A model generated the notes under the pieces. The model had not been told where the DNA came from. It did not search any database and saw nothing but the letters and a program-made list of their open reading frames with translations. From the IMG/VR virus record IMGVR_UViG_3300024518_000036: 64,000 bases of DNA; one strand, 5' to 3'. Shown piece by piece: positions 1,708 through 37,188 of this stretch (position 1 is the stretch's first letter; each line of letters begins with the position of its first letter). This DNA is from an uncultured virus (IMG/VR IMGVR_UViG_3300024518_000036). Its lineage: Duplodnaviria; Heunggongvirae; Uroviricota; Caudoviricetes. Position numbers and translations under genes: made by a program.

Positions 1708-2874
1708 CTACTTCTTCTCTTCGACCGGAATGTGCCCCCCGTTCTTGAGTGCAAGGGCGCGCCCCTTGCTCAACAACCGAGAAGCAGCCCGCTCCACCTC
1801 GTACTGCATGAACATGTCGTCTTCGCTCTGTGCTGCCAGAGTGATGGCGTCGATGACCGAGGCGAGCATCCCGCCCGGAGTGGTCGTGACATCAGAGAGC
1901 GCAGCCTGCGCACCCTTGACCACCCGCTCCGGAACCGCAGGCATGAGCCCCAGCTCCTGCTCCAGCCACACGAAGGCGTTGTCGATGCCAATATCCATCG
2001 CTGCCTTGTAAGCTTCGACGACACCGCTAGCCGACGTGGTGAGGTTGGTAAAGGCATTCTGGACCCCCGAGCGAATGCGCTCTGCGTCTCCCCTATGAAT
2101 CCAGTTGTACTCGGTCTGGCTGTTCCAGTGACCCATGCCGTTGGTGCAAACCAACTTCCACATCCCACCACGAAGACCGACCTTGCGACGAGCAACCTCG
2201 GAGTTCCACGCCTCGATCATCGGGATGGGCTCGTTCAGCAGTGCGCTCTGGTCAAGGTTAGCCAGCCCGAACAATTCGTTGTCCATCCCAGCGAACCGGA
2301 TGCGCATTCCCGAATCCGTCACCCTCCAGTCGAGGACCGGCAGGTTCTTGTAGTCCCCGGCGTGGTCGAGGATGTCCTGCACGAACTCCAAGTTCGAGTA
2401 GGTGGCATAGGTCTGGCTGACAGTCGCACGAACGACGCGTGCGATCTCCCCGTCGACCTTCATGCGAATGGTCCGCACCTTTCTCGGCGTGCTGCTATGC
2501 TTGCGTGCGAACTTGGCCCACACCATGGTCGAGAGCCTGCCGCCGTGCTCGTCCATCTTCGCAAGCTGCTTCAAGCCCTTGAAGAAGTGACCCGGCAGAA
2601 CGTAGCTCTGGGTTGAGGACGCCCCAATGTCCGTGAAGCGGAAGGTCGTCTCTTCGCGACCGTTCGGCCCGAGCCAGAAGGCTTCCATGTGACCTTTGCT
2701 GAAGTCCACGTGAAACTGGTCGAGAGTCCGCTCGTGGTCAACGGGGTCCTGGAGGCGGTTCAGCTTGGCGAGGTAATCGCGAACCTCTTCCAGGTGAAAG
2801 GTTGAAAGAACTCCTTTCTCGGAGCCCCGACGAACCAAAGTCCTGTCGCCGATTGTGAATGCTGCTGTGCTCAT
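1708..2874 (-). CDS. DUF932-family phage protein
   Basis: Motifs VRATVSQTYATYSNLEFV, WNSEVARRKV, GGMWKLVCTNGM and WIHRG are typical of DUF932. The ATG at 2874 follows AACACAGGAG. Confidence 0.75.
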   Translation of the reverse strand: MSTAAFTIGDRTLVRRGSEKGVLSTFHLEEVRDYLAKLNRLQDPVDHERTLDQFHVDFSKGHMEAFWLGPNGREETTFRFTDIGASSTQSYVLPGHFFKGLKQLAKMDEHGGRLSTMVWAKFARKHSSTPRKVRTIRMKVDGEIARVVRATVSQTYATYSNLEFVQDILDHAGDYKNLPVLDWRVTDSGMRIRFAGMDNELFGLANLDQSALLNEPIPMIEAWNSEVARRKVGLRGGMWKLVCTNGMGHWNSQTEYNWIHRGDAERIRSGVQNAFTNLTTSASGVVEAYKAAMDIGIDNAFVWLEQELGLMPAVPERVVKGAQAALSDVTTTPGGMLASVIDAITLAAQSEDDMFMQYEVERAASRLLSKGRALALKNGGHIPVEEKK

Positions 2875-2935
2875 GTTGTTCTCCTGTGTTGTTTCGGGGG
2901 TTTTGGGCGCGACCCTCACGCGCGTGGTATTTTGT

Positions 2936-2973
2936 TTTGACAAATCCTCTCACGAGAACTGTCAGTTGTCAAA
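2936..2973 (-). promoter_or_regulatory. Putative promoter TTGACA-N17-GAGGAT inside an 8-bp inverted repeat (TTTGACAA...TTGTCAAA), possibly an operator
   Basis: Seen directly in the intergenic region upstream of the DUF932 gene. Confidence 0.45.
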
Positions 2974-3164
2974 CTATATGACTGAGTTTGTCTCAGCCTG
3001 GAAGAATCCTGTTCAGGTTGGCAATCGTACGCTCGGTAAGGATCTTCTCAGCACTACCACTGTCAGTGTTGCGATACCGACCTTGCGCATCTCTGCTTGA
3101 AGGGCAGAGACGGCTCCTGCCAGAGTCATGATTCTTCTTCTCGGTGTCATCGTCTTAATCACTG

Positions 3165-3911
3165 TCAGCTCCCCAAGAAAAAGGTGTACCCCTCGACGTC
3201 TCCGTCGGGATCGTCCGCTTCAGCCAGCAGTTCGAGGTCGTGTCTTGGGATCACGTCCACCGACTCCAAGAAGACGTGATGCTCGTCTTTCGTCGTCCTG
3301 ATCTGCTGCTCTGCGATCACACACAGCTCCAACCAAGTCGGGTTGGTGAGGATGTCAGAGAAGTAGAGCTTCGCCTCCTCTCCACCCCAGAACTTGTCTG
3401 GATGAGCCACTACGATTCCACGGCCCTTGAAGGCCACCTCGTCGAGGTTGTCGCCCGGCTCGTCGTCATAGGCGGAGTAGCGGACGTGAAAGGGAGGTTC
3501 TAGTCCAGCTGCCCGGAGAGCCGCTTCAACTCGAATCTCTTGCTCATCGGACAGGCGAAACGACTTCTTTTCCTCCTCCGAGTAGTCGGAGTCTGGCTTG
3601 TCCCACCACTTGGGCTCTGGCTCGGCCCCCGATTCCACCCACTCGACCGGCTCGATGACGACACGGTACTCAGGACCGTACTCGTCGATGGCCTCGCAGT
3701 AGCCCTTGTGGGCCGCCTCAATGCCCCGGTAGGCACCGAGGCGTCCCTTCGGCCACCGCGCCTCCAAGGGACTGGAGGCGTCGGACCCGAACTCATCACG
3801 CCTACGAACGCAGACGTAGAAATCAGTCTTGCTCTGTCGAATCATCTTCTCTCCTTTCCAGAACAGGTGGTCTTTCCCCCTCGGGTCCCGCTGCTGCTGC
3901 CCGCTCATCAA
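3165..3911 (-). CDS. Hypothetical protein with near-C-terminal HDLELLA tag
   Basis: 248-aa ORF overlapping the stop codon of the upstream gene. Confidence 0.65.
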   Translation of the reverse strand: MMSGQQQRDPRGKDHLFWKGEKMIRQSKTDFYVCVRRRDEFGSDASSPLEARWPKGRLGAYRGIEAAHKGYCEAIDEYGPEYRVVIEPVEWVESGAEPEPKWWDKPDSDYSEEEKKSFRLSDEQEIRVEAALRAAGLEPPFHVRYSAYDDEPGDNLDEVAFKGRGIVVAHPDKFWGGEEAKLYFSDILTNPTWLELCVIAEQQIRTTKDEHHVFLESVDVIPRHDLELLAEADDPDGDVEGYTFFLGS

Positions 3912-5230
3912 GCCCCCTCGGGCCAGCTGACCAAGCCGAGACCCACGACGAGAACGAGAACCTCTTCGAGGGGAAGCTCGGGCTCTTCTCCACGAGCAGA
4001 CCGGAGAGCACGCACTTCCGGCGTGTCCATGCGCTCACGAAGACGAGACAGCTCCGCTGTAGTTCCCTCTCCGAGGAGGAAGTTGATGGTCTCCTCCACA
4101 TAATCGAACTCGACCGGCTCCGGGTCACCCGTGTCAAGCGCCGGAGGCACGCTGTTCCCGGTGGCCTCCCGAACCTTCTCCCACCAGTTGGCCAGAACGT
4201 TCTCGTCCGGCCACGTGTAGACCGTTCTTTTGGCCTCTTTGCCGCTCGGCAACCGGACCTTAGTCACGCTGGGCAAGAGGTCGGGATTCTCCTTTTCCAA
4301 GAGGCTCAGAGCAGCATAAAACAGGCTCTTGCTAACTCCCAGAGCGGACGCTGCAGCCCGGACCCCCACAACCGGCGGGGACGACATCGGCACAGGCGCG
4401 ACGGGGACGGGGTGCCGGACGGCTGTGATGCCTGCGTGGGCTTCGACGGTATCCACCACCTTGCCGACCCAGTTCAGCCTCTTCCACTCTTTGAAGCGGT
4501 AAGCGTTGGCCTTCGATTTCACGGGATCGCTGGTGATTTGCCACACCACCCGAGAAAAGACCCAGTCCCCTCCAGTCGAGGTTGCCTTAACAATGGACGG
4601 CTTCTTCAACTTCGGAGAAGCAACGAGATCCTTCACAGTCCCTACCCAAACCGCACCGGTGGGAGGAGACTTGCAAGTGGAAGGACGAACAACAAGAGCA
4701 TAGACGCAGCCCGGCTCTTCTTGAAAGAAGGAGTCGGGTACGGTGAAAGGCAGCCCCAGCACACCCCTCACCCACTTCTCACCGGACGACCTCGTAACCT
4801 CCCGGTACTGGTAATCGTCCTTGTTCGGCTTCTTGCTTTGCTCCGCCTGGGTCGCCAGAGGCAAGCCGCGCGCTTCGAGGTCCCGTCCCTCTTGATACCA
4901 AGACCGCACGTGCTCTTCATCCCGCCAACGCCAAGAGAACTTGTTGGTTCCCTGCTGACTCGACACCTTCAGCGGGGCGTTGCTTCCGGCAAAGTCGAGC
5001 AACAGCAGCTTGCTAATGGCGTACTGCGTCACACCGAGCACTTTGCTCGCTCCCCTATGCCCACGGATCTCTTCATCTTTCCTACTCAACTCTTCCATAC
5101 TCAGCTCCTTTCTTCTGTTTTGGTTCCAGTGCGTCGAGCACCAGCCCCTAGCTCTGTAATCACGCTTGCAGCCAGAAACGGTGCAAGTCCTTTCTTCTTC
5201 ACCAACAGCCCCTTCGGCTGCCAAGTGCAC
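3908..5230 (-). CDS. Putative DNA-binding protein (Cys/His finger plus two HTH-like segments)
   Basis: CTVSGC...ARGWCSTHW finger. IRGHRGASKVLGVTQYAI and VVGVRAAASALGVSKSLFY look like repeated HTHs. Confidence 0.55.
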   Translation of the reverse strand: MHLAAEGAVGEEERTCTVSGCKRDYRARGWCSTHWNQNRRKELSMEELSRKDEEIRGHRGASKVLGVTQYAISKLLLLDFAGSNAPLKVSSQQGTNKFSWRWRDEEHVRSWYQEGRDLEARGLPLATQAEQSKKPNKDDYQYREVTRSSGEKWVRGVLGLPFTVPDSFFQEEPGCVYALVVRPSTCKSPPTGAVWVGTVKDLVASPKLKKPSIVKATSTGGDWVFSRVVWQITSDPVKSKANAYRFKEWKRLNWVGKVVDTVEAHAGITAVRHPVPVAPVPMSSPPVVGVRAAASALGVSKSLFYAALSLLEKENPDLLPSVTKVRLPSGKEAKRTVYTWPDENVLANWWEKVREATGNSVPPALDTGDPEPVEFDYVEETINFLLGEGTTAELSRLRERMDTPEVRALRSARGEEPELPLEEVLVLVVGLGLVSWPEGA

Positions 5231-28072: not shown

Positions 28073-29515
28073 TCATACCTCGTTGCCATCACCGTCGACC
28101 CGGAGCACCTGGCCCCACTTCCCGCCAGTGGGATCGACATCGCCTTCCGCTTCCCACAGGACCCAGAGCACGTCCCGGATGTGAGTCGGCTTGACCGCTG
28201 GAACACCGATGTACCCGTCGGTGTAGGCCACGACGACTCCGGTGTAGCCCTCCTCGTGCAGCTTATTGAAAGCCGGAGTGAAGTCGGACCCGCCACCACC
28301 CTTCACATCCACGTCCTCCGGCTCCCGAACATCCTCCTGATCACTGTGGATCGCCGCGTCGCAGCAGATGACCCGCAGGCTCATGTTGAGATCGTCGCAG
28401 ATGCCGATGGTCTCGGACAAGATCTCCGCCTCTCGGCCGTTCATCGAACCCGACGTGTCCCACAGGACCACGAGGTCGTCAACGCCGTGTCTCTGGAGTG
28501 CCGGAAGGAACTCACCGATGGACTCGGAACGACGGCTCGGACGCCGGTAGGTGAAGTCAGCACGGCGGCCGTTCGCACCGACCCAGCGAGACAACACGTC
28601 GATCCAGCTGATCTTCGGGTCCGTGATCTCGTCGATGAGCTTTTGGAGGGCTCCCGGCAGCGTGCCCCGTCCCTTCTGCTTCTCATGAACCTGTGCAGCT
28701 TCGCACAGGGCCACCTTCCAGTACTGGTCCAGTGACCTGTTCTGAGCCTCCCCACGGCTCTGTCCACTCGTCTGTGGCCCGAGGCCGTCTCCTTCGAGGC
28801 CGCCTCCTTCCCCGTCTCCGTCCTCACCCTCTCCGTCCCCACCACTCTGCTTGCCGTCTCCACCGAGGTCGTCCCTCATGTCGTCGGTGCCCCAGTGGTC
28901 GTCCTTGTTCTTCCCGGGCAGGCGAATCGTTCCTTCTCCGTCTCCACCACCCTTGCACGCTTGCTTAAGGATGATGTCGTAGATCTCCTCAGCGGCGTGT
29001 TCATCGTACCTGTGGTCCAGACAACCACCCGAAGGAAGGCTCACTTCTGAAACGTCCTTGCACATCGTGTCGATGATGCCGTTGATTGCGTAATCGTGAG
29101 CGATGTTCCAGAGCAAAACACGGTCGCCCCACTGGGACTCGACAACGGCGACACGAGTTCCCTGCCGTTCCCAGCAGAGGTACGCCGGGTGCATGACCTC
29201 GTGGCAGAGAACCGCTGCAAACTCGGCGTCGGTGAGCTTGTCGCAGAAGTCCAGGTTGAGGAACAACCTACGATCCCGGCTGACGGCCATCGTCGGAATG
29301 CCCATCGAGGCTGTGGCGATGTGCGGGTCCAGCTTGAGCAGCAGGTGCCCGAAGAAAGGAACCCAGACAGTCAAGGCCGTTCGGACTCGGCTGAGCCGGT
29401 CCTTCAAGGCTTCGACTCGCTGGGGATCGAGAGCAGCAAGCTCCAAGTCCGACTTGTCCGACGGCTTCCCGGACTGGGGGCCGAAGGAGTGCATCGCTGG
29501 GGGTGTGTTCATCAT
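28073..29515 (-). CDS. DUF2201-type protein: N-terminal HExxH metallopeptidase-like domain plus C-terminal VWA domain
   Basis: VLCHEVMH; WNIAHDYAIN; MIDAS motif DTSGSM; GGGGSDF; YTDGY. Confidence 0.85.
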   Translation of the reverse strand: MMNTPPAMHSFGPQSGKPSDKSDLELAALDPQRVEALKDRLSRVRTALTVWVPFFGHLLLKLDPHIATASMGIPTMAVSRDRRLFLNLDFCDKLTDAEFAAVLCHEVMHPAYLCWERQGTRVAVVESQWGDRVLLWNIAHDYAINGIIDTMCKDVSEVSLPSGGCLDHRYDEHAAEEIYDIILKQACKGGGDGEGTIRLPGKNKDDHWGTDDMRDDLGGDGKQSGGDGEGEDGDGEGGGLEGDGLGPQTSGQSRGEAQNRSLDQYWKVALCEAAQVHEKQKGRGTLPGALQKLIDEITDPKISWIDVLSRWVGANGRRADFTYRRPSRRSESIGEFLPALQRHGVDDLVVLWDTSGSMNGREAEILSETIGICDDLNMSLRVICCDAAIHSDQEDVREPEDVDVKGGGGSDFTPAFNKLHEEGYTGVVVAYTDGYIGVPAVKPTHIRDVLWVLWEAEGDVDPTGGKWGQVLRVDGDGNEV

Positions 29516-29559
29516 CGTTTACTGTCCTCGTGTTGAGTGTACTGTGCTGTAAGAGGGTA

Positions 29560-29619
29560 TCCCGGACGACCCCAGAGGGGCCGTTTCGGCCGGTGCCCAA
29601 CCGGCTCTCATCAGCGGGA
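29560..29619 (-). ncRNA. Type I hammerhead ribozyme, GUC cleavage site
   Basis: Minus strand reads TCCCG-CTGATGA-GAGCCGGT[TGGGC]ACCGGCC-GAA-ACGGCCCC[TCT]GGGGTCGT-C-CGGGA. All core nucleotides and three stems are present, and the site is intergenic. Confidence 0.85.
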
Positions 29620-29623
29620 GCTG

Positions 29624-29851
29624 TCAGAACGGCTCGCTGAGCCCCGGACACTTCAGGACGAGATCGCCCTTCGCTGGGACTGGGTTCGTCTCCTGCTGCT
29701 CGTTGAAGAGGTCCTCAAGCAGGTCCTCATGCTGGCCGTCTGGGTCGGGACCATCGGCAGAGAGAAGCGTGTACTGCTGAGCCGTGAGAGGAACGATGAT
29801 GTCCCACTCGTGACCGTGGTGGGGGTACTCGAAGTGTAGGTAGTGATTCAT
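29624..29851 (-). CDS. Small acidic hypothetical protein (75 aa)
   Basis: The ATG at 29851 lies directly after the AAA ATPase stop. Confidence 0.55.
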   Translation of the reverse strand: MNHYLHFEYPHHGHEWDIIVPLTAQQYTLLSADGPDPDGQHEDLLEDLFNEQQETNPVPAKGDLVLKCPGLSEPF

Positions 29852-29852
29852 C

Positions 29853-31067
29853 TCACTTCCCCGTCTTGTTGAAGGTGTTGGCCAAGAAGTCAATCACGCT
29901 CTTCACGAGAGCATCGCCCTTGTTGGTCCGAGCCGCTTGGACCAGGGAGGTGATGTCTCCGCCATTCGACGTGTAGGTGGAAACTGCCGTTGCGATGTAC
30001 TCACGGTCACGTTGAGTGACGTGACCGACAGCCCTCATGAACATGAGAGGAGCCTCTTTCTTCTTCTTGGCATCAACGCCCTTGCGCCACTCGGCAGCGA
30101 CCTCCCCAAGCCCCGTGGCCATGGCGTATGCCTTGTCCGGGCTGTTGAGGACCTTCCGAGGATCCGGCAGGACCTTCAGGGGATCCCGCAACACCTTGGT
30201 CGGATCGACCAGGGTATTCCTCACGTTCAGGAACGCCTGGAACTCGGTTGCGATGCCCTCCGAAACCAGACCGGAAGCGACTTCGAGAAGCACTCCGTTC
30301 GCCTCTGCGACGGTGAACACTCCTCCAAGCAGAGCCCAGCTCCGGGGCGTAGCGAAGGAGCCCTTCTTGTCGGCATCCTTCGGGAGCTTGCTGTGGTGGG
30401 AGGGACGGAATCGCAGGAACGCGGCGATGACAGGAGCGTGTTCCTGCTGCTGTCCATACCACTCGCACCAGTCCTCGACGTTCGTCTCGACGGTTAGGAT
30501 CTGGACGGTGTTACAGAAGTGAGCAGGCAGCGTCGAGCTACCGCTCTTGTCCTCCCGACGGTTGCCGGTCGAGAACAGGATCACGCCGGGGGAGAGCCTC
30601 ATTTGGCCGATGCGTCGATACAGGACCAACTGGCGAACGGCCACCTGGACAGCGGGAGCCGCAGCTGGGATGTCATCCAGGCAGAGGACTCCGACTGCAC
30701 CGGGAGCACAGAAGGGTGCCATCCAACGCTGGGCGGCGTAAAGCGTGACCATCATCTCGGTCCCGCAGACCGACTGCATCCCGGTCTTGGGGATTCCGCC
30801 GATGTCTTCCGGCAGGAAGCTGCTCAAGTCGGCGGCATAGAACAGCACCGCGCTGTCGGGGCTCCCGTTGAAGTTCGGCTTCAAGGCCAAGTCCACGACC
30901 GGCCGGTTGAGGTGCGTACCGATCAGTGCGGCGGCGGCCAGGGCGCAGGCCGACTTGCCAATGCCGGGCTCTCCCAGCACCTGAACTGGTGCTATGGGAT
31001 CCATGCCCCGGCGGCGGAAGTGCGCCCAGAGGCCGAAGGTGTAATCTCGAAGGACGTTGAATTGCAT
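29853..31067 (-). CDS. MoxR-like/AAA_5-type ATPase, partner of the DUF2201-VWA protein
   Basis: Walker A GEPGIGKS, Walker B-like LCLDDI, STGNRRED and FATPRSW. RBS CACAGGAG. Confidence 0.85.
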   Translation of the reverse strand: MQFNVLRDYTFGLWAHFRRRGMDPIAPVQVLGEPGIGKSACALAAAALIGTHLNRPVVDLALKPNFNGSPDSAVLFYAADLSSFLPEDIGGIPKTGMQSVCGTEMMVTLYAAQRWMAPFCAPGAVGVLCLDDIPAAAPAVQVAVRQLVLYRRIGQMRLSPGVILFSTGNRREDKSGSSTLPAHFCNTVQILTVETNVEDWCEWYGQQQEHAPVIAAFLRFRPSHHSKLPKDADKKGSFATPRSWALLGGVFTVAEANGVLLEVASGLVSEGIATEFQAFLNVRNTLVDPTKVLRDPLKVLPDPRKVLNSPDKAYAMATGLGEVAAEWRKGVDAKKKKEAPLMFMRAVGHVTQRDREYIATAVSTYTSNGGDITSLVQAARTNKGDALVKSVIDFLANTFNKTGK

Positions 31068-31194: not shown

Positions 31195-31782
31195 TCAGTT
31201 CAGCTTGCTGAGAGCCGTGGCGACCTCCAGCGGCGAGAATCCCGCCGCCTTCAGCGCTCTGGCAATGACCACCAGGCGATCGTCCTGCTTGACGAGCTGC
31301 GGCTCCGGCAGCTCGGCGATGAACGCCGGAGTGAGGACTTCCGGCAGGCCCGCCTTCTCGGCGAACCTTCCGGCTCGGTGGGCCTTGGAGAACTCGTTCC
31401 GGTTCTTCATCCGGCTCCAGTAGTCCAGACCGGGCTTGATGCCGGTGTCCCCGGCTCCGACACCGATGGCCTCCAGGGCTTCCCCGACGGCGAACCAGCG
31501 AGCGATTGCATCGCGGATGCCCTCGTGGTTGATCGGCGCCTTCTCCCAGGTGCCGATCACTTTCGTGGCCCGGCCCTTGTGGCTGGGCTCTGCGGTGGCC
31601 TGGAGACAGTCATCGACTCCGGGGCGGGAGTCGAGGCTCAGGGACTTGAGCAGCCGAGCGAAGGCTCGGATTTGCTTCCAGGTGACGGGACGAAGGTCCG
31701 CCGTGTGGGGATCGGTGTCGGTCATATGACCTCCTGTGTTGTTGGCTGAGGGTTTGTCGAGGTTGTTGTTGTTGTCGGTCAT
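31195..31782 (-). CDS. Paralog family B, member 1; two in-frame starts (31782 and 31725), each with its own RBS
   Basis: WKQIRAFA...WFAVGEAL...AAGFSPLEVATALSKL. Confidence 0.75.
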   Translation of the reverse strand: MTDNNNNLDKPSANNTGGHMTDTDPHTADLRPVTWKQIRAFARLLKSLSLDSRPGVDDCLQATAEPSHKGRATKVIGTWEKAPINHEGIRDAIARWFAVGEALEAIGVGAGDTGIKPGLDYWSRMKNRNEFSKAHRAGRFAEKAGLPEVLTPAFIAELPEPQLVKQDDRLVVIARALKAAGFSPLEVATALSKLN

Positions 31783-31811
31783 ATGACCTCCTGTGTTGTT
31801 GGCTGAGGGTT
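31716..31811. repeat. 39-bp exact direct repeat (period 57) duplicating the leader, RBS and start codon
   Basis: TGTCGGTCATATGACCTCCTGTGTTGTTGGCTGAGGGTT at 31716-31754 and 31773-31811. Confidence 0.9.
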
Positions 31812-31905: not shown

Positions 31906-32619
31906 TCAGCTGGCGAGCTTCAGCTTCGCCAACGCCTGAGCGATATCCAGCGGGCTAATCCCGGCTGCGCTCATGGCTGCGGCCACCGTGGCGAGATTGA
32001 CATCGGACATTGCCTCCGCCAACACCAGGGCGGGGTCTGGGACACGGTCGCCCCACTCGACACTGCCAGCCTGCGGAACTGGCTGGGTCTCGACCTTCTC
32101 CTCGATGACACGTCGGGCAAACCCGGCGTGGCCGGAGAACAGATTGCCGCCCTTCCTTTCCCGAGGGACCGGGACCGGCAATTCGTAATTGGCCGAGTCG
32201 AGACCGGCCTTCTTCAAGAAGCCCTTTGCTCGGGCATGGGAGTCGATATCACCCAAGGGGTTCCGCTCACTGTGGATCCGCGTCCGAATCCGGGACAAGT
32301 AGTCCAATGCCGGGGACATGCCAGTCCGCTTCTTCTTGCTCTCGCCCTCGTGTGGTCCGATACCCAGCACCATCAGCGCCTCGCCGAAGGCGAACCACCA
32401 AGCGATTCGCTCCGTGATTACCACGTGGGCTTCGGGCTTGCTCTTCCAGCTTGCCACCTCGGCTTTTGCCGCCGTGACATGGGCCGGGAGAACCTCGATG
32501 TCACCCTCGATTCCGAACGTCTCCGCCAAGTCTTCCGACTTGTACGTCGCTCCGGGGCGAAGAACCCCAAAGCCCTGGATTGCGAACTGCTTGATCTGAC
32601 GCCACTTCATGTCACCCAT
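31906..32619 (-). CDS. Paralog family B, member 2
   Basis: MKWRQIKQFA...WFAFGEAL...AAGISPLDIAQALAKL aligns by eye with 31195..31782. Confidence 0.75.
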   Translation of the reverse strand: MGDMKWRQIKQFAIQGFGVLRPGATYKSEDLAETFGIEGDIEVLPAHVTAAKAEVASWKSKPEAHVVITERIAWWFAFGEALMVLGIGPHEGESKKKRTGMSPALDYLSRIRTRIHSERNPLGDIDSHARAKGFLKKAGLDSANYELPVPVPRERKGGNLFSGHAGFARRVIEEKVETQPVPQAGSVEWGDRVPDPALVLAEAMSDVNLATVAAAMSAAGISPLDIAQALAKLKLAS

Positions 32620-32900
32620 TGGGTACCTCTCATTGTTGTTGTTGCACGACGGATACAACGAGAAAAGAGCATCAACCGATGGAAACCACCGGAAACCACC
32701 GGTCGCCTTTTGTCTCTATCAGTTTTTTGCTCAAATCATCGTCATCCACCCTTTGCCATCGTTCAATTTTTCCTGCTTAAAGAGAATATCTCCGGTACTT
32801 GTCAGAACGTGCGTGATTGACGTGCGTCCGCGCAGACGCGAGTCTGTACGCACGGTGCGCGCATTAGATCCCTTGTACGCGTTGTTCCTTGTATTTGCGC

Positions 32901-33350
32901 TCAATTTACGTCGTTCCTCTTGCGCAGTAACCACTTGGTAATCTCCGTCGCCATTTCACTGTTCCCGTGCCTGTCTGGGTGGCAGAGTCGAATGAGGGCC
33001 TTTACCCTCGCTTGCGTCAGTCCGTCGTTGCTCTTCATCACAGGGGGAGGCTTCGCTTTGAAGGCCTTCAACTCCTTTCTTGCAGACGTGTAAGCTTTCC
33101 TTGCATCCTTGTAAGCTTGGTAGACCTTGCGACCTTTCACCCGTTCCTGTTCAGTCTGTTCTACAGCTTTGGTGTATGCATCACGCATCAACTCGAACGC
33201 CCGGTCGCCTTTCCCCGTCTTGTAGCCGTTCTCTTCCTTCCAGCAGAGGAGGCACTTCCTCTTCCAGTCTTCGTCGGCGACGAAGGGCTTGGTGCAGAGA
33301 TCGCACTCCCGAAGCTCGGCGAAATCAGAGTCGGTAGTTGTCTCCAACAC
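32901..33350 (-). CDS. Zn-finger, coiled-coil and truncated J-domain-like (HPD) protein
   Basis: CDLC...CLLC at the N-terminus and LIRLCHPDRHGNSEMATEITKWL at the C-terminus. GGAGG RBS with a GTG start. Confidence 0.65.
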   Translation of the reverse strand: MLETTTDSDFAELRECDLCTKPFVADEDWKRKCLLCWKEENGYKTGKGDRAFELMRDAYTKAVEQTEQERVKGRKVYQAYKDARKAYTSARKELKAFKAKPPPVMKSNDGLTQARVKALIRLCHPDRHGNSEMATEITKWLLRKRNDVN

Positions 33351-33384
33351 GATACCCTCCTATCCCGCGCCGAACTTCCATCTA

Positions 33385-33958
33385 CCGCAAGTCCGGATCT
33401 CAACTCGTTCTGGGGCGTGGTCTTCAACCTGGAGTCCCCATCCCGCAACTCAACTCCGGGCTCGGTCTCACGTCCGAAGCGATGGCCCCACCAGTCCGCA
33501 ACTCGTTCTGGGGCGTGCGCAAGGGCGACCCGCAACTCAGACTCTCGTTTCGACGCCGTCGGTCACCGCAACTCGGCGGAATGCTGACATCGACGTAGAC
33601 ATCCCGCAACTCAGTGCCGCAACGCTCGTCAACGCCAGGGCACGAAGAACCCGCAACTCGAACTGGCGCGCGACCTTCCCAGCCCCGCAACTCGCCTTCA
33701 TCGACGGTTGCCATCTGGCCCGCAACTCGACGGACGCCAGCAGACCCGCAACTCGTTCTTCCAAAGACATTGACCTGGTGCCCAGCGAGGAGGCTCGCTG
33801 AAGACGCCGCAACTCGACGTCGGAGAGAGGAAGAGCGGGTGCTCTCGTCGGGACTGGCTCCGCGAGCGTAGCGCCGCAACTCGACAGAGGGAGACCGCAA
33901 CTCGACAACAAGTATCTACAGGATCTGGAGATTCCCGAAGACCCCGAGCCCGCAACTC
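33385..33958. repeat. Non-coding array of 13 exact CCGCAACTC repeats with unique spacers of 12-58 bp
   Basis: Exact copies start at 33443, 33496, 33530, 33566, 33604, 33651, 33685, 33720, 33746, 33807, 33874, 33895 and 33950, with degenerate copies near 33385, 33398 and 33617. All are co-oriented and most spacings are not multiples of 3. Confidence 0.9.
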
Positions 33959-34015
33959 CTCTCCCTCCTCGAAAGGAAGGGGTGTGCCTCTTTTGTGAGT
34001 CGCCTACAACACCCC

Positions 34016-34335
34016 CAACGAGTTGGAAGTACTAGGTTCATCTCACCAGACGAGCGGTGTCAGAGCTTCGGTCGATGACCGAGCCGCTCGCGCTGGTTCG
34101 TTGATTTGGAGCGTCACCTGTTCACTCTGTTGCTCGATGGTGTAAGCCGAAGCCAAGCATCGAGGCGACTGAACGATGGGACTGTGGCGCTGGCTCTCTG
34201 AAGCCATTGCTGGGCATGACTGCCCACTCCCCTCAAGGCCCTGCGGTGGGCCACACGCTGCCAAGCACCGAGGCACGGAGCTTCCTGGCAGCGGTTTTTA
34301 GTGATGTGAAAGATCTCAAGACCCCAAGGGTCTAG
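34016..34335 (-). ncRNA. Putative omegaRNA/sgRNA-like guide RNA of the Cas12f-like nuclease
   Basis: About 300 nt downstream of the stop codon, with many stems: AGACCC/GGGTCT, CGCTGCCA/TGGCAGCG, TGGGCA/TGCCCA, TGGCT/AGCCA, CTCGATG/CATCGAG and ACCAG..CGAGCGG/CCGCTCG.CTGGT. It ends in GAGATGAAC at 34036, similar to the TGAAC 3' end of the AsCas12f1 repeat. Confidence 0.6.
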
Positions 34336-35943
34336 TTAGTTCGCCGCAACCTTTCCTTCAACCTTCTTGGCTGCAAGGATGCCCCGACGGGCGATATTGA
34401 TGGCTGCGTTGTGGTCGGCTTGTCCTCTGTAGTCACAGCCCTTTCGACTGCTCTCGGCAAGCTTCTTGTTTCGGAGGAGGGTCTCCCCCAAAGGGACTTC
34501 GCCGTCTGCCCACTCGAAAGGAGCCTGGGTTCCTTCGGAGGCACAGTGAAAGATCTCAGGCGAGATGCGGCCCGAAGCGATCTCTCCTTCCTTCGGAGAC
34601 CGGTCGACCCAATCGCGCTTGTGAACGAGACTGCATTGATGGCAGGTTCGAGACGTCCATGCCGGGTCGATGGCTACAGCTTGAACACCTTCACGCTTCG
34701 CGACCCAAAGAAGCTGCTCGCGCATAGCAGCTTCGTGCCAACGAAAGAAGCTGCCTCGAATGCGCCTGCCCTCGGAACGGCTCCGGCGGTCAGCCTTGGC
34801 GTGCATCTTGTCAACCGACCATTTGCCGTGGTCCTCGACGACGATGAGAGTCGCCCCGCGCTTGATGGCTTGCTGAATAGTCGCCGCTGCAGTTTGCTGA
34901 ATCATGGTGACAACCAGGCGTGCGTGGCGGTCGGCAATGTGGTCGAGGGCACGAATCTTGCGGGAACGGCCCCTCCCCGCGCGAACCTCAAGAACGGCAG
35001 CGTTCAGCAAGCCCCGCATCTGCCTCTCGTGCTTGATCCAGGCTAGAGCACGAAGGGTGCGTCGAGGGAAGTGGACGAGTTCGGGTCGTTTCAGGGGCTT
35101 CCCCTCGCCATCTACGAAGGCCGTCCAAGTGGCGTGTCGAATGCCCGTGTCAATGCCCGCAACCACGGCCTTGATCTCTTCGGGCTCGAATGTCGCCACC
35201 TTGTGCTGAAGGTCCGTGAAGGTAATCGAGAGCATCCACTTTCCGCGAGCGCCGGGTCGTTGCTTCCACAACAACGTGGATGTGCCCATCTTGTAGCGGC
35301 CGGTTCGCATGCCTTCGAGAATAGCTTGGCTTCCTTTGTCGATTTTGCGGGGTCGAAGTGCAACCCATCCGGCTCCCCGCCTCACCCGAGGGAGGCCATT
35401 GAAGTTCCCAAATGCTTGAAACAGGATCGTTCCATCCTCCCGAAGCTTGACGCCCTGGTTCGTGATGGGAATCCCCCCGTTACGAAAGGAAGCCAGGGAT
35501 TTCTTCCCTCGGCGGATATCCATCAAATCGGTCTTGAGGCGGTCGTGAACGACCGTGGCCTGAGCCGTCAGGACGAGTCCAGCGGGTCCAGGAAGCTGGA
35601 GAGTTTCGGTCTTCTCCGCCTCTCCGTGCCGCCCGATCTTGATCTTCTTCTCGGTACGGTAGGGCTTGTACGCCGCCCCGGAGCCTGTGGGATCCCAAGT
35701 TCCGTTAAAGACCTGATAGGCGAGGGTCTGGAAGAAGGCTGGCTTGCCGTCCGGTCGAACGGGGCGCGGGATCGCCTCTTCGTACACCAGCCAGAGGTTT
35801 CGGATGGCTCGATTGCTGGCGCGGGTCAACGTGTCCATCACGTTCCAGAGCTTGTGCTGAACCCGGATTTTGTCTTCGCGTCGTGCCGAAGCGAAAACCA
35901 CCTCGAAGCGAATGGCACGAGTCAATCCTTTCTGCTTCCCCAC
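34336..35943 (-). CDS. Cas12f1/TnpB-family RNA-guided nuclease, about 535 aa, RuvC triad intact
   Basis: RuvC-I VAGIDTG, RuvC-II IVVEDH, IDPAWTSRTCHQC and RuvC-III ADHNAAINIA. Segments IRRGKKSLASFR, AILEGMRTGRYK..KWMLSITF and RAGRGRSRKIRALDHI resemble AsCas12f1 as recalled (ILRGDMSIPSYK, IMDRILSGEYQ..KWYLNISY, RGGHGRDKRIKPIEQL). GTG start after GGAG. Confidence 0.9.
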   Translation of the reverse strand: MGKQKGLTRAIRFEVVFASARREDKIRVQHKLWNVMDTLTRASNRAIRNLWLVYEEAIPRPVRPDGKPAFFQTLAYQVFNGTWDPTGSGAAYKPYRTEKKIKIGRHGEAEKTETLQLPGPAGLVLTAQATVVHDRLKTDLMDIRRGKKSLASFRNGGIPITNQGVKLREDGTILFQAFGNFNGLPRVRRGAGWVALRPRKIDKGSQAILEGMRTGRYKMGTSTLLWKQRPGARGKWMLSITFTDLQHKVATFEPEEIKAVVAGIDTGIRHATWTAFVDGEGKPLKRPELVHFPRRTLRALAWIKHERQMRGLLNAAVLEVRAGRGRSRKIRALDHIADRHARLVVTMIQQTAAATIQQAIKRGATLIVVEDHGKWSVDKMHAKADRRSRSEGRRIRGSFFRWHEAAMREQLLWVAKREGVQAVAIDPAWTSRTCHQCSLVHKRDWVDRSPKEGEIASGRISPEIFHCASEGTQAPFEWADGEVPLGETLLRNKKLAESSRKGCDYRGQADHNAAINIARRGILAAKKVEGKVAAN

Positions 35944-36028
35944 GCCTACTCCCCCTTTGTCATCTGGCAATTACCTGGTGGCCTCTGTCTTGTCAACTGG
36001 CAATCTCGTGCTTCTGGTACGGTCCCCA

Positions 36029-36694
36029 TCAGCCCCCCTCTTCGCCCTCGCGAGAGATGCGGATTCGATCGCATTCTTCGGAGCAGGTAAGGGCGCCAGC
36101 GAAGGCGACCCGCTCTCCGCAGGTCTGACAGGGCCCTCTGGGAGCTGCGAGGCCGTCCAGCTGAAGCAGGATCATCGTAGCCTGTTGGCCAATGCAGCAC
36201 TGGTACTCCGGGTCCGGGGCCTCCCACGGCTCGTCGCACTCCGAGCACCGCCCGTCATCTTCTCTTCCTTCGGCAGCAATGCTCTTCACGAAGTCGAGGA
36301 GAACGTCTGACCCGAAGGTTCCGAGAAAGACGTTGCCTTGCCCGGCTCTCCTAAGACCCTTCACTTCGACCCCCGCCTGTTCCAGCAGAGCGGCCGCTTC
36401 GTGCCCGTTGCCTTCGATAGTGAGGATGAAGGTGAGTTCGTCAGAGGTGTTGGCCTTCTCTGCTCCTTTCACGGGGCTTCCTTTCTCCCCTTCATCACCG
36501 CCGCCCGACCCCCGTTCAGGCAGGGCGCTCGCTTCGCTCGCGCCAGAACCTTCGGGAAATGGGAGTGAGGCTTGGTGTAGTGTGCGGGATGAAGTGGGCG
36601 CGGTGCAGGGTAGACGCTCCCAGTAGCGGTCGGAAGGGTCTTCGGGAAATGGGAGTGAGGCTTGGCCTCCAAGCGGGGTCTTCTTTTTCGTCAT
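36029..36694 (-). CDS. Hypothetical protein with duplicated QASLPFPE and C-terminal Cys motifs
   Basis: In-frame 26-bp exact repeat at 36550-36575 and 36640-36665. Confidence 0.55.
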   Translation of the reverse strand: MTKKKTPLGGQASLPFPEDPSDRYWERLPCTAPTSSRTLHQASLPFPEGSGASEASALPERGSGGGDEGEKGSPVKGAEKANTSDELTFILTIEGNGHEAAALLEQAGVEVKGLRRAGQGNVFLGTFGSDVLLDFVKSIAAEGREDDGRCSECDEPWEAPDPEYQCCIGQQATMILLQLDGLAAPRGPCQTCGERVAFAGALTCSEECDRIRISREGEEGG

Positions 36695-37188
36695 GTTGCC
36701 TCTTGCAGTTGAATACGAGCGCGAACCAGGGCCAACGTGGGGTCGTCAGTGTCGATGACAAAGGTGATTGTTCGTCCGCCGCTGTACCGGTTGATGGTGG
36801 AGAGTGCCCACATCCCGTCTCGACCGGAGAAAGTGAGTTCACCCTCATCGTTGAGCTTGGCTGCTCGAACGAGGTCAGCTTTGAGACACGCCCACGTTGC
36901 TACATCGGCCGGGTCCACGTTGGGGAGCAGATCACCGGCTTTGAGCGCTGTCGTGATGGGAGTCATGTTCAACGGCGAAGCCGCCCCGTAGCCGACGGGG
37001 GAGAAGGCAGGCAGCTCGGACAGCCCGTACAGGCTCACCAGGTCGTCCTTCAACCAGAAGGCGTAGTCCATGCGCCTTTCCACGTCCCTCAGTTCGGCCA
37101 CACACTGCCATCCCCCGACCGTGCTCACCCCGCGCCTCGCCAGGTAGCCCTCGGGGTATGCCCTCCACAGCAGTTCTCGATCAATCAC
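36691..37188 (-). CDS. Hypothetical phage protein
   Basis: 165 aa with AGGAG RBS. Confidence 0.65.
   Translation of the reverse strand: MIDRELLWRAYPEGYLARRGVSTVGGWQCVAELRDVERRMDYAFWLKDDLVSLYGLSELPAFSPVGYGAASPLNMTPITTALKAGDLLPNVDPADVATWACLKADLVRAAKLNDEGELTFSGRDGMWALSTINRYSGGRTITFVIDTDDPTLALVRARIQLQEAT

Follow-up and report, generated by a model that had tools for sequence, protein, structure and literature searches.

A Cas12f-like nuclease gene on a phage-like marine element, lacking a canonical CRISPR array and followed by a structured candidate guide-RNA region and a strain-variable array of short repeats

Compact type V systems encoded by phages, among them Cas12j, Cas12l, and Cas12p, carry canonical CRISPR arrays. 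Phage-borne compact relatives of Cas12 and TnpB, array-less derivatives of Cas12f, and fixed natural guides are already in print (PMC10691335; PMC10705468; PMC11656645; 10.1101/2025.01.20.633832). In the Cas12f branch, arrays without Cas1 and Cas2 have been described, and the fusion of a half repeat with the trans-activating CRISPR RNA (tracrRNA) re-creates an omegaRNA (PMC10691335); for TnpB of the IS605 type, homing is an established role (10.1101/2023.11.20.567912). We analyzed a 64,000-nt stretch of DNA from an uncultured virus (IMG/VR record IMGVR_UViG_3300024518_000036; Caudoviricetes), referred to at its full length as the window, which encodes a Cas12f-like nuclease on its minus strand. 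We consider it modestly probable that this protein is a Cas12f-type RNA-guided nuclease that has no array and is guided, in the manner of an omegaRNA, by an RNA encoded just 3' of its gene. In the open-access literature, we found no description of a RuvC-intact, array-less Cas12f-like family, nor of a 9-mer array beside one.

The gene under study is the following:

34336 to 35943, minus strand: Cas12f-like nuclease gene, 535 aa from the GTG at 35943, with the RuvC D-E-D residues intact and a TNB zinc finger that carries an insertion.

The open frame itself spans 34336–35970, and initiation at TTG 35970 would give 544 aa; the GTG at 35943, which is preceded by AAGGGGGAG, is the likely start, and the database form of the protein (P0001) likewise has 535 aa. 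The only Pfam domain above its cut-off is PF07282 (Cas12f1-like TNB domain; 44.5 bits, cut-off 26.3), and the PHROGs label is transposase (phrog_506). The best PDB sequence matches are AsCas12f-type chains (E about 1e-9), all three RuvC motifs of which are aligned by GIDTG, VVEDHG, and ADHNAAINIA of the nuclease; these motifs show no variation across the four closest sequences. An AlphaFold2 model built from 46 family sequences (predicted local distance difference test score 86.8, predicted template modeling score 0.81) is poorly confident at residues 475–499, which correspond to the zinc-finger insert. Searched with Foldseek, the model finds AsCas12f first (8dzj; E 6e-21; template modeling score 0.74, normalized to target length) and ISDra2 TnpB more weakly (E 3e-12); the VIA-align Z-scores are 23.8 for AsCas12f (386 aligned residues, root-mean-square deviation 3.5), 22.7 for OsCas12f, 22.6 for SpCas12f1, 19.7 for dCas12f, 17.8 for ISDra2 TnpB, and 16.9 for Un1Cas12f. 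The nuclease is a protein of the TnpB/Cas12 superfamily with a predicted fold that is closest to AsCas12f, OsCas12f, and SpCas12f1, and on this model it is nearer to CRISPR-associated Cas12f than to TnpB. A preliminary description of the locus had proposed a Cas12f1-like protein of about 535 aa with an intact D-E-D triad, and sequence, profile, and fold all uphold that assignment. The same description had noted an insertion within the zinc finger that separates its second pair of cysteines; the alignments confirm it, with about 35 aa parting the last two zinc-finger cysteines (C476 and C512 in the 544-aa numbering), and the insert is missing from P0004 and most family members, in which the two cysteines are adjacent.

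The reported lack of Cas1, Cas2, TnpA, and canonical CRISPR also stands. Pfam scans of 72 window open reading frame (ORF) translations detect no Cas1, Cas2, or TnpA/transposase family, and the 64-kb window contains no direct-repeat family of at least 20 nt with at least three copies, and thus no canonical CRISPR array. There is no second copy of the nuclease in the window, and no transposon ends were found there.

A word-based search returned three relatives of the nuclease, and a HMMER search with a profile of the nuclease and its relatives returned 892 proteins at E<=1e-3, with 65 cluster representatives at E<=1e-30; the 65 are almost all full-length matches, after which scores drop to those of generic TnpB and Cas12f. 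All 10 clusters that were looked up come from metagenome assemblies (JGI, Logan, ENA, NCBI), and the cluster of the window nuclease itself is found on contigs of up to about 150 kb. No relative was detected in 185,579 species genomes (one per species; queries A1 and A3) or in IMG/VR using four queries (the window protein, P0002, A3, and A5), and query A4 yielded from IMG/VR only generic TnpB-like genes with <=37% identity over part of their length. Judged from these sequence searches, the nuclease belongs to a rare family that is known only from metagenomes. Canonical CRISPR arrays do occur beside the genes of distant viral relatives (26–29% identity, partial length), in 5 of the 78 IMG/VR loci examined. 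These arrays have 6–9 repeats with a period of about 66, lie downstream of the gene in L030, L039, L052, and L080 and upstream in L026, and have repeats that terminate in ...ACAAC or ...GAAAC.

Within the family, the first RuvC position is Asp in 35 of 46 aligned members, His in 10, and Asn in one, the second is Glu in 45/46, and the third is Asp in 42/46. The His variants (P0014, P0015, P0017, P0022, P0024, P0031, P0038, P0045, P0046, and P0066), 7/10 of which form one clade in a quick tree, may have an altered or lost catalytic mode. In L001 (34% identity over 432 aa), a more distant comparator and the one family locus among the metagenome-contig matches listed, Arg and Pro replace the first Asp and the Glu of the protein (2235–3686) and, by eye, Glu replaces the last Asp; the L001 homolog is probably nuclease-dead.

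From the nuclease stop codon to the next ORF (32901–33350) there are 985 nt without a credible gene, and Pfam matches none of the ORFs overlapping this gap. Its part nearest to the nuclease contains the following features:

34036 to 34335, minus strand: structured non-coding region with several hairpins, a candidate omegaRNA- or single-guide RNA (sgRNA)-like scaffold, as indicated by fold z-score, strain identity, and blocks in common with L001.
34227 to 34252, minus strand: hairpin GGCCC-ACCGCA-GGGCC and then UUGAGGGGAG, matching L001 block 3765–3790.
34056 to 34064, minus strand: TCTGACACC block, 9/9 identical to L001 3953–3961.

The minus strand of 34016–34340 folds at -129.1 kcal/mol, compared with -111.1 ± 5.7 kcal/mol for shuffled sequences (z -3.17; 0/100 as good). 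The stretch occurs in 24 runs from 19 studies of seawater and marine-sediment metagenomes, three of which are possibly the source of the window. Contigs of one of these runs (X6) show 0 differences over 279 covered nt of 34016–34330, compared with 14 in about 1174 nt of the ORF; as the contigs are of low depth, this comparison is a hint and not proof. The sole changes that X6 shows here, one substitution and a 4-nt deletion, fall right at the nuclease stop codon. In L001, a tRNA-Arg(TCT) gene overlaps the stop codon of the nuclease homolog and is followed by about 890 nt of non-coding DNA (about 950 nt from the gene end), and 722 nt folded from just past the stop codon are strongly structured (z -5.24). 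The L001 counterpart of the 34227–34252 hairpin (GGCCN-6 nt-NGGCC, then AGGGGAG) has a compensatory C-G to G-C change in its stem, and the distance between the hairpin block and the TCTGACACC block is 188 nt in both loci, each block being offset by 58 nt between the window and L001. There is moderate support, from sequence comparison, for a homologous structured RNA encoded after the nuclease gene in both loci. The fold z-score, the near-invariance among strains, and the collinear L001 blocks make a guide-RNA scaffold 3' of the gene plausible; of the natural sgRNA or omegaRNA of about 300 nt and several stems that had been proposed, the structured scaffold is retained as plausible, but the specific sgRNA model is unsupported. 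The omegaRNA of ISDra2 is about half the length of the candidate scaffold, which measures at least about 280 nt.

No Rfam family comes near its gathering score in 32500–37000, and the scaffold motif GGCCNACNGCANGGCCNNNAGGGGAG has 0 matches in IMG/VR. Two further sequences common to the window and L001 were set aside: AGATGAAC, since an 8-mer is expected by chance between two 1-kb regions, and the 13-mer GGCTCGGTCATCG, which is treated as chance or a remnant because it lies within and just past the 3' end of the L001 tRNA-Arg gene and the window has no tRNA. Past the scaffold, the non-coding DNA of L001 contains several unlike direct-repeat pairs at 4090–4520, comprising copies of 22 nt at a distance of 49 nt (extendable to about 27 nt by eye), two tandem copies of 22 nt, copies of 19 nt at a distance of 43 nt, and copies of 14 nt at a distance of 168 nt.

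The guide itself was previously placed directly after the scaffold:

34016 to 34035, minus strand: earlier-proposed 20-nt guide, identical in the strain contigs that cover it, with a 3' half that can pair with the next G-run.
33959 to 34015, minus strand: two hairpins (GGGGUGU...ACACCCC; CCCUUCC...GGAGGG) that separate the proposed guide from the first copy of the repeat array described below.

The preliminary description had reasoned from GAGATGAAC at 34044–34036, immediately before the 20-mer, and from pairing between the two ends of the scaffold. The 8/10 pairing of TTCACATCAC:GTGAGATGAA is arithmetically correct, yet it amounts to -6.3 kcal/mol only, and it lacks significance: the best partner of the 14-nt 3' tail within the scaffold (-12.0 kcal/mol) is equaled by 126/300 shuffles. 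No drop in conservation follows TGAAC, an outcome that the preliminary description had named as refuting: the strain contigs X4, X6, and X8 agree with the window across the 20-mer and further, as far as 33778, 33968, and 33949, respectively, with the exception of 34015 C>A in X4; this test is weak both ways, since the strains are nearly identical and a fixed guide would be conserved too. Homolog alignment was the other route suggested to the scaffold/guide boundary: aligned by MAFFT, the window and L001 agree at positions within the 20-mer (TAG.ACT), and each has a G-run hairpin after it, so that matches persist inside and past the proposed guide. Folded locally, the 20-mer forms a hairpin in which its 3' half pairs with the G-run that comes next. 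That the 20-mer has no second match in the window was correctly stated, and this extends to up to 3 mismatches. The whole 990-nt non-coding region has matches in the phage and plasmid collections only at E 0.3–0.9. With pairing at chance level, no target, conservation past TGAAC, and a local hairpin, the exact sgRNA with guide 34035–34016 is unsupported, and we regard it as unlikely that this 20-mer is the actual guide.

In favor of a boundary at GAAC, related viral repeats end in ...ACAAC or ...GAAAC, and the L080 repeat resembles TCTGGTGAGATGAAC (9/15 positions over its last 15 nt, by eye). The guide would start either there, after GAAC at 34036, or after the first GAGTTGCGG of the repeat array at 33950, where the strains begin to differ; over its covered part, the 33959–34015 stretch between these two candidate boundaries is conserved among the strains.

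On the reading that we favor, the locus would encode a divergent, catalytically competent Cas12f-type RNA-guided DNA endonuclease, carried by a phage-like mobile element of marine origin that measures about 150 kb. A canonical array would have been lost or never present, and the system would operate without adaptation genes or a transposase. The guide RNA would most likely be one long transcript directly 3' of the gene, with a scaffold that begins about 40 nt past the stop codon, extends for at least about 280 nt, and has a single fixed guide fused to it, in the way of an omegaRNA or natural sgRNA. The sequence that this guide targets for cleavage would be conserved and lie outside the window, for example in the host, in a rival element, or in the "empty" allele of related phages. 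By analogy, the best reading of its evolutionary route is that proposed for Cas12f-derived proteins (PMC10691335), except that the active site would be retained here.

Several observations weigh against this reading. The nuclease falls below the curated thresholds of both NCBIfam TnpB (NF040570; 61.6 vs. 100 bits) and NCBIfam Cas12f2 (NF049972; 47.7 vs. 450 bits). L001 is the sole distant comparator locus for the 3' region, and its protein is without the first two catalytic residues; moreover, RNAalifold is too permissive on two sequences, and covariation between two sequences is weak. Neither anti-repeat-type nor 5'/3' pairing in the scaffold exceeds chance. Directly past the stop codon, a short hairpin and a U-rich run seen by eye at 34329–34305 could end the mRNA before the scaffold is reached, and in the RNA-library run X18, whose library may contain DNA, contigs reach 33807–33959 and parts of the ORF but not the scaffold. 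A target of the 20-mer, for which a search had been recommended, was found neither in the window nor in the phage or plasmid collections, and IMG/VR gave 0 exact matches.

Downstream of the candidate scaffold is a feature that is absent from the preliminary description and that changes what "no CRISPR" means at this locus:

33443 to 33958, minus strand: array of 13 exact GAGTTGCGG copies in one orientation, strain-variable, beginning 57 nt past the proposed guide.

The motif occurs 14 times in the window compared with 0.85 expected (largest shuffle 3), and two copies with one mismatch are located at 33617–33625 and 33385–33393. The start-to-start spacings are irregular (55, 21, 67, 61, 26, 35, 34, 47, 38, 36, 34, and 53 bp), leaving segments of 12–58 nt between copies; the copies occupy all three reading frames, and the spacings are not multiples of three. 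The core can be extended by one to three bases at most, to 9–12 nt overall; the preceding base is C (9) or T (3) in 12/12 later copies and G in the first, and the following base is G in 7/12 later copies. The array therefore falls short of a CRISPR array in the sense of regular repeats of >=23 nt with similar-sized spacers. Structure in the array region equals that of shuffled sequences (z +0.16), and there is no AT-rich flank beside it (GC 0.52–0.68 in 60-nt windows). As for an anti-repeat, the best duplex between the 13-mer and the scaffold (-14.5 kcal/mol) is matched by 200/300 shuffles, and the best within ±7 kb on both strands (-20.8) is inside the null range of -18.8 to -22.8. The inter-repeat segments have no above-chance match in the window or the phage or plasmid collections; against the rest of the window, they reach at most 14 exact bases, or 14/15.

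Comparison of strains shows where the array varies. The X8 contig is identical to the window over 33949–34052 and then has 47 unlike letters that start at a repeat edge, and the X18 contig is identical over 33807–33959 and then has 45 unlike letters that also start at a repeat edge (33806/33807); a 30-letter consensus of each unlike stretch is missing from the window. These junctions rest on two short contigs of low depth. The X6 contig is divergent from 33324 on, 27 nt inside the 5' end of the next gene, and in X4 the array is the same as in the window over 33530–34422. Between genomes that otherwise share about 99% identity, differences concentrate in the array, with break points at the motif. 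We treat it as a feature separate from the nuclease, one that is real and strain-variable and for which any link to the nuclease is putative.

A search of IMG/VR for loci with three spaced GAGTTGCGG copies gave 23, which are unrelated tandem or coding repeats (regular spacing, mostly multiples of 3), and no similar motif array is present in L001. ACGCCCCAGAACGAGTTG occurs twice at the far end of the window's array, and 33401–33414 and 33499–33512 form a 14-nt inverted match (86%) with 34012–34025, the 3' part of the proposed guide.

A functional coupling between the strain-variable YGAGTTGCGG units and the Cas12f-like protein is, in our judgment, quite unlikely; it could take the form of a guide array with repeats of about 10 nt (no tracrRNA pairing, no Cas1/2) or of tandem sites for a 9–10-nt guide. 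As the nuclease's minimal-repeat guide array, CRISPR-like and without Cas1/2, it would work alongside the fixed guide or replace it: the scaffold would end with the first GAGUUGCGG (33958–33950), and later copies would each provide a 9–12-nt handle and a 12–58-nt variable guide. This proposal would account for a same-strand array that begins 57 nt past the proposed guide without an intervening gene, for the divergence of X8 (33949/33950) and X18 (33806/33807) right at repeat copies into sequence found nowhere in the window, and for the canonical arrays of distant relatives, which adjoin the gene and are downstream of it in 4/5 loci. However, the repeat is just 9–12 nt with irregular spacing, there is no anti-repeat (in the scaffold or, at null level, within ±7 kb), the array is unstructured, the motif agrees with the GAAC-end of the scaffold at 6/12 positions by eye, the inter-repeat segments match nothing above chance, L001 has no such array, and the junctions come from the two low-depth contigs mentioned; we consider the proposal very unlikely. 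Highly improbable, in turn, is the idea that the copies are DNA sites bound uncut by the nuclease ribonucleoprotein through a 9–10-nt guide GAGUUGCGG(G) that is the first copy itself, with the pyrimidine before the 12 later copies serving as a minimal target-adjacent motif (TAM) and the G-preceded self copy being spared. It draws on the C or T at position -1 in 12/12 later copies (P about 1.4e-4 by composition) and the G in the first, on the single orientation of the copies, on a match that stops after 9–10 nt, and on the documented natural guides of 9–11 nt in oppF-type TldR proteins (PMC10705468); further, catalytic residues have been lost repeatedly in the family (His in 10/46; Arg and Pro in L001), which suggests binding as the conserved activity. 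But the window protein retains D-E-D, a one-base TAM is much weaker than known TAMs of 4–5 nt, 12 tandem sites have no obvious purpose, the strain variability is left unexplained, the scaffold would need about 377 nt, and L001 offers no significant analog (GCAGG, tried as such, has 8 copies against a null 95th percentile of 7).

Alternatively, the array may be independent of the nuclease and consist of sites for a DNA-binding protein of the element or host (iterons, a partition centromere, packaging or regulatory sites), with its position beside the nuclease's RNA gene a coincidence in intergenic space; we hold this to be somewhat unlikely. Short intergenic motifs in a single orientation are typical of iteron or centromere-type sites. 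The array lies near a broad minimum of cumulative GC skew (about 34–42 kb) and has no RNA-level signal, with structure and anti-repeat both at null level; its absence from L001 indicates that it is not a family trait. Nevertheless, no AT-rich unwinding element adjoins it (GC 0.52–0.68), the spacing is irregular and not helically phased, no initiator or ParB-like gene was identified nearby, and the replacement of inter-motif sequence between 99%-identical strains would be unusual for an origin. A different explanation concerns the nuclease gene, which could be a selfish TnpB-style homing cassette with no benefit to the phage: the fixed guide would match DNA just past the cassette, so that cassette-less relatives are cut and repair copies the cassette in. 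The lack of a second target in the window is as such a model predicts, and among strains, a mosaic break point lies immediately downstream. Set against this are the nuclease-ORF contigs in all four runs compared, with no empty allele seen, the lack of a second copy, transposon ends, or TnpA in the window, and a predicted fold nearer to CRISPR-associated Cas12f than to TnpB, and we judge a homing cassette decidedly unlikely.

The phage origin of the element is plausible, not proven. In favor of the earlier designation as phage-borne, PHROG matches in the window include an HNH endonuclease (3e-69), an ATPase (7e-44), and phrog_6077 (6e-40), a Kyanoviridae Gp96 domain and DUF3987 are also present, and the 149-aa ORF next to the array has viral look-alike clusters; against it, no capsid, terminase, tail, or other structural or packaging gene was seen in the 64-kb window. 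The window consists mostly of ORFans, and the element was not met in the IMG/VR searches. Two features flank the locus:

32901 to 33350, minus strand: next gene downstream, 149 aa, with an N-terminal CxxC...CxxC, a C-terminal HPD-containing J-domain-like end, and its own GGAGG.
35949 to 35996, minus strand: possible expression signals of the nuclease gene, read by eye.

The latter comprise TTGACA at 35996–35991, a 17-nt gap, and TAATTG at 35973–35968, along with the Shine-Dalgarno-like AAGGGGGAG run at 35957–35949, 5 nt ahead of the GTG. A promoter scan did not report the TTGACA-17 nt-TAATTG site upstream of the nuclease gene; these signals could possibly give the gene its own expression. Elsewhere in the window, gene orientation flips at about 44300, from mostly minus before to plus after, and cumulative GC skew has its broad minimum at about 34–42 kb. 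A perfect 39-nt direct duplication, 57 nt apart, is located at 31716–31811; both copies hold a minus-strand AGGAGG-N-ATG, so that the gene ending at 31195 has its ribosome site and its start in duplicate. ORF 36029–36694 contains a perfect 26-nt repeat at 36550–36665, 90 nt apart, which gives a repeated ASLPFPE peptide. At 28073–31067, a DUF2201 metallopeptidase/VWA-like protein adjoins an ATPase (phrog_1297), and we take the two to resemble a MoxR-VWA pair.

If the model of an array-less nuclease guided by the RNA just 3' of its gene is true, the locus would represent a Cas12f-type nuclease that is compact and active and whose guide RNA is naturally fused, and it could offer a new scaffold for editing. 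The locus would further add a branch to the path from TnpB to Cas12, in which the array was lost and the active site kept, in a lineage absent from reference genomes and IMG/VR. The His-substituted and dead-site members suggest that the family could show drift from cutting to binding. If the short-repeat array were coupled to the nuclease, the notion of a guide array would change, and the RNA-guided architecture would be one that has not been described for any Cas12 or TnpB relative.

Among known systems, AsCas12f, OsCas12f, and SpCas12f1 (type V-F; PDB 8dzj, 9nzs, and 9i8y) are the best match in sequence and fold (Z 22–24 over about 385–397 residues), and the nuclease shares with them the WED/REC-RuvC-TNB order, an intact D-E-D, and a downstream RNA gene, here a candidate. 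Unlike Cas12f, the window locus has no array of 30–37-nt repeats and no detectable repeat:anti-repeat pairing, and the nuclease exceeds it by about 110 aa and has insertions, one of them in the zinc finger; sequence identity is about 20%. The phage compact type V loci L030, L039, L052, and L080 resemble it in their viral setting and in having a small Cas12-type effector without Cas1/2 and an array beside the gene; those arrays, however, are regular (period about 66), and protein identity is 26–29% over partial length. IS200/IS605 TnpB with its omegaRNA (ISDra2; PDB 8h1j and 8exa) is similar in combining a single protein, a long structured 3' RNA (a candidate here), and one fixed guide without adaptation genes, but in the window no TnpA, transposon ends, or further copies are seen, the fold is more distant (Z 17.8 and 16.2), and the NCBIfam cut-off for TnpB is not reached.

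The sigma-factor-associated inactivated TnpB or dCas12f proteins (PMC10691335; PDB 9n9c; Z 19.7) likewise have lost the array and use a fused downstream guide RNA, as is proposed here. According to that source they are nuclease-dead and linked to genes for RpoE, MobC, or a relaxase, whereas the window nuclease has D-E-D and no such neighbors. TldR proteins (PMC10705468), TnpB-like repressors without nuclease activity of which some are encoded on prophages, are comparable in being phage-borne, in using a fixed natural guide RNA, which in some has a guide of 9–11 nt, and in having no transposase, and the apparent erosion of the active site in L001 and the His-variant clade is analogous to theirs. 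The TldRs described there, in contrast, derive from IS605 TnpB and are without the C-terminal zinc finger and RuvC parts, both of which are complete in the window protein.

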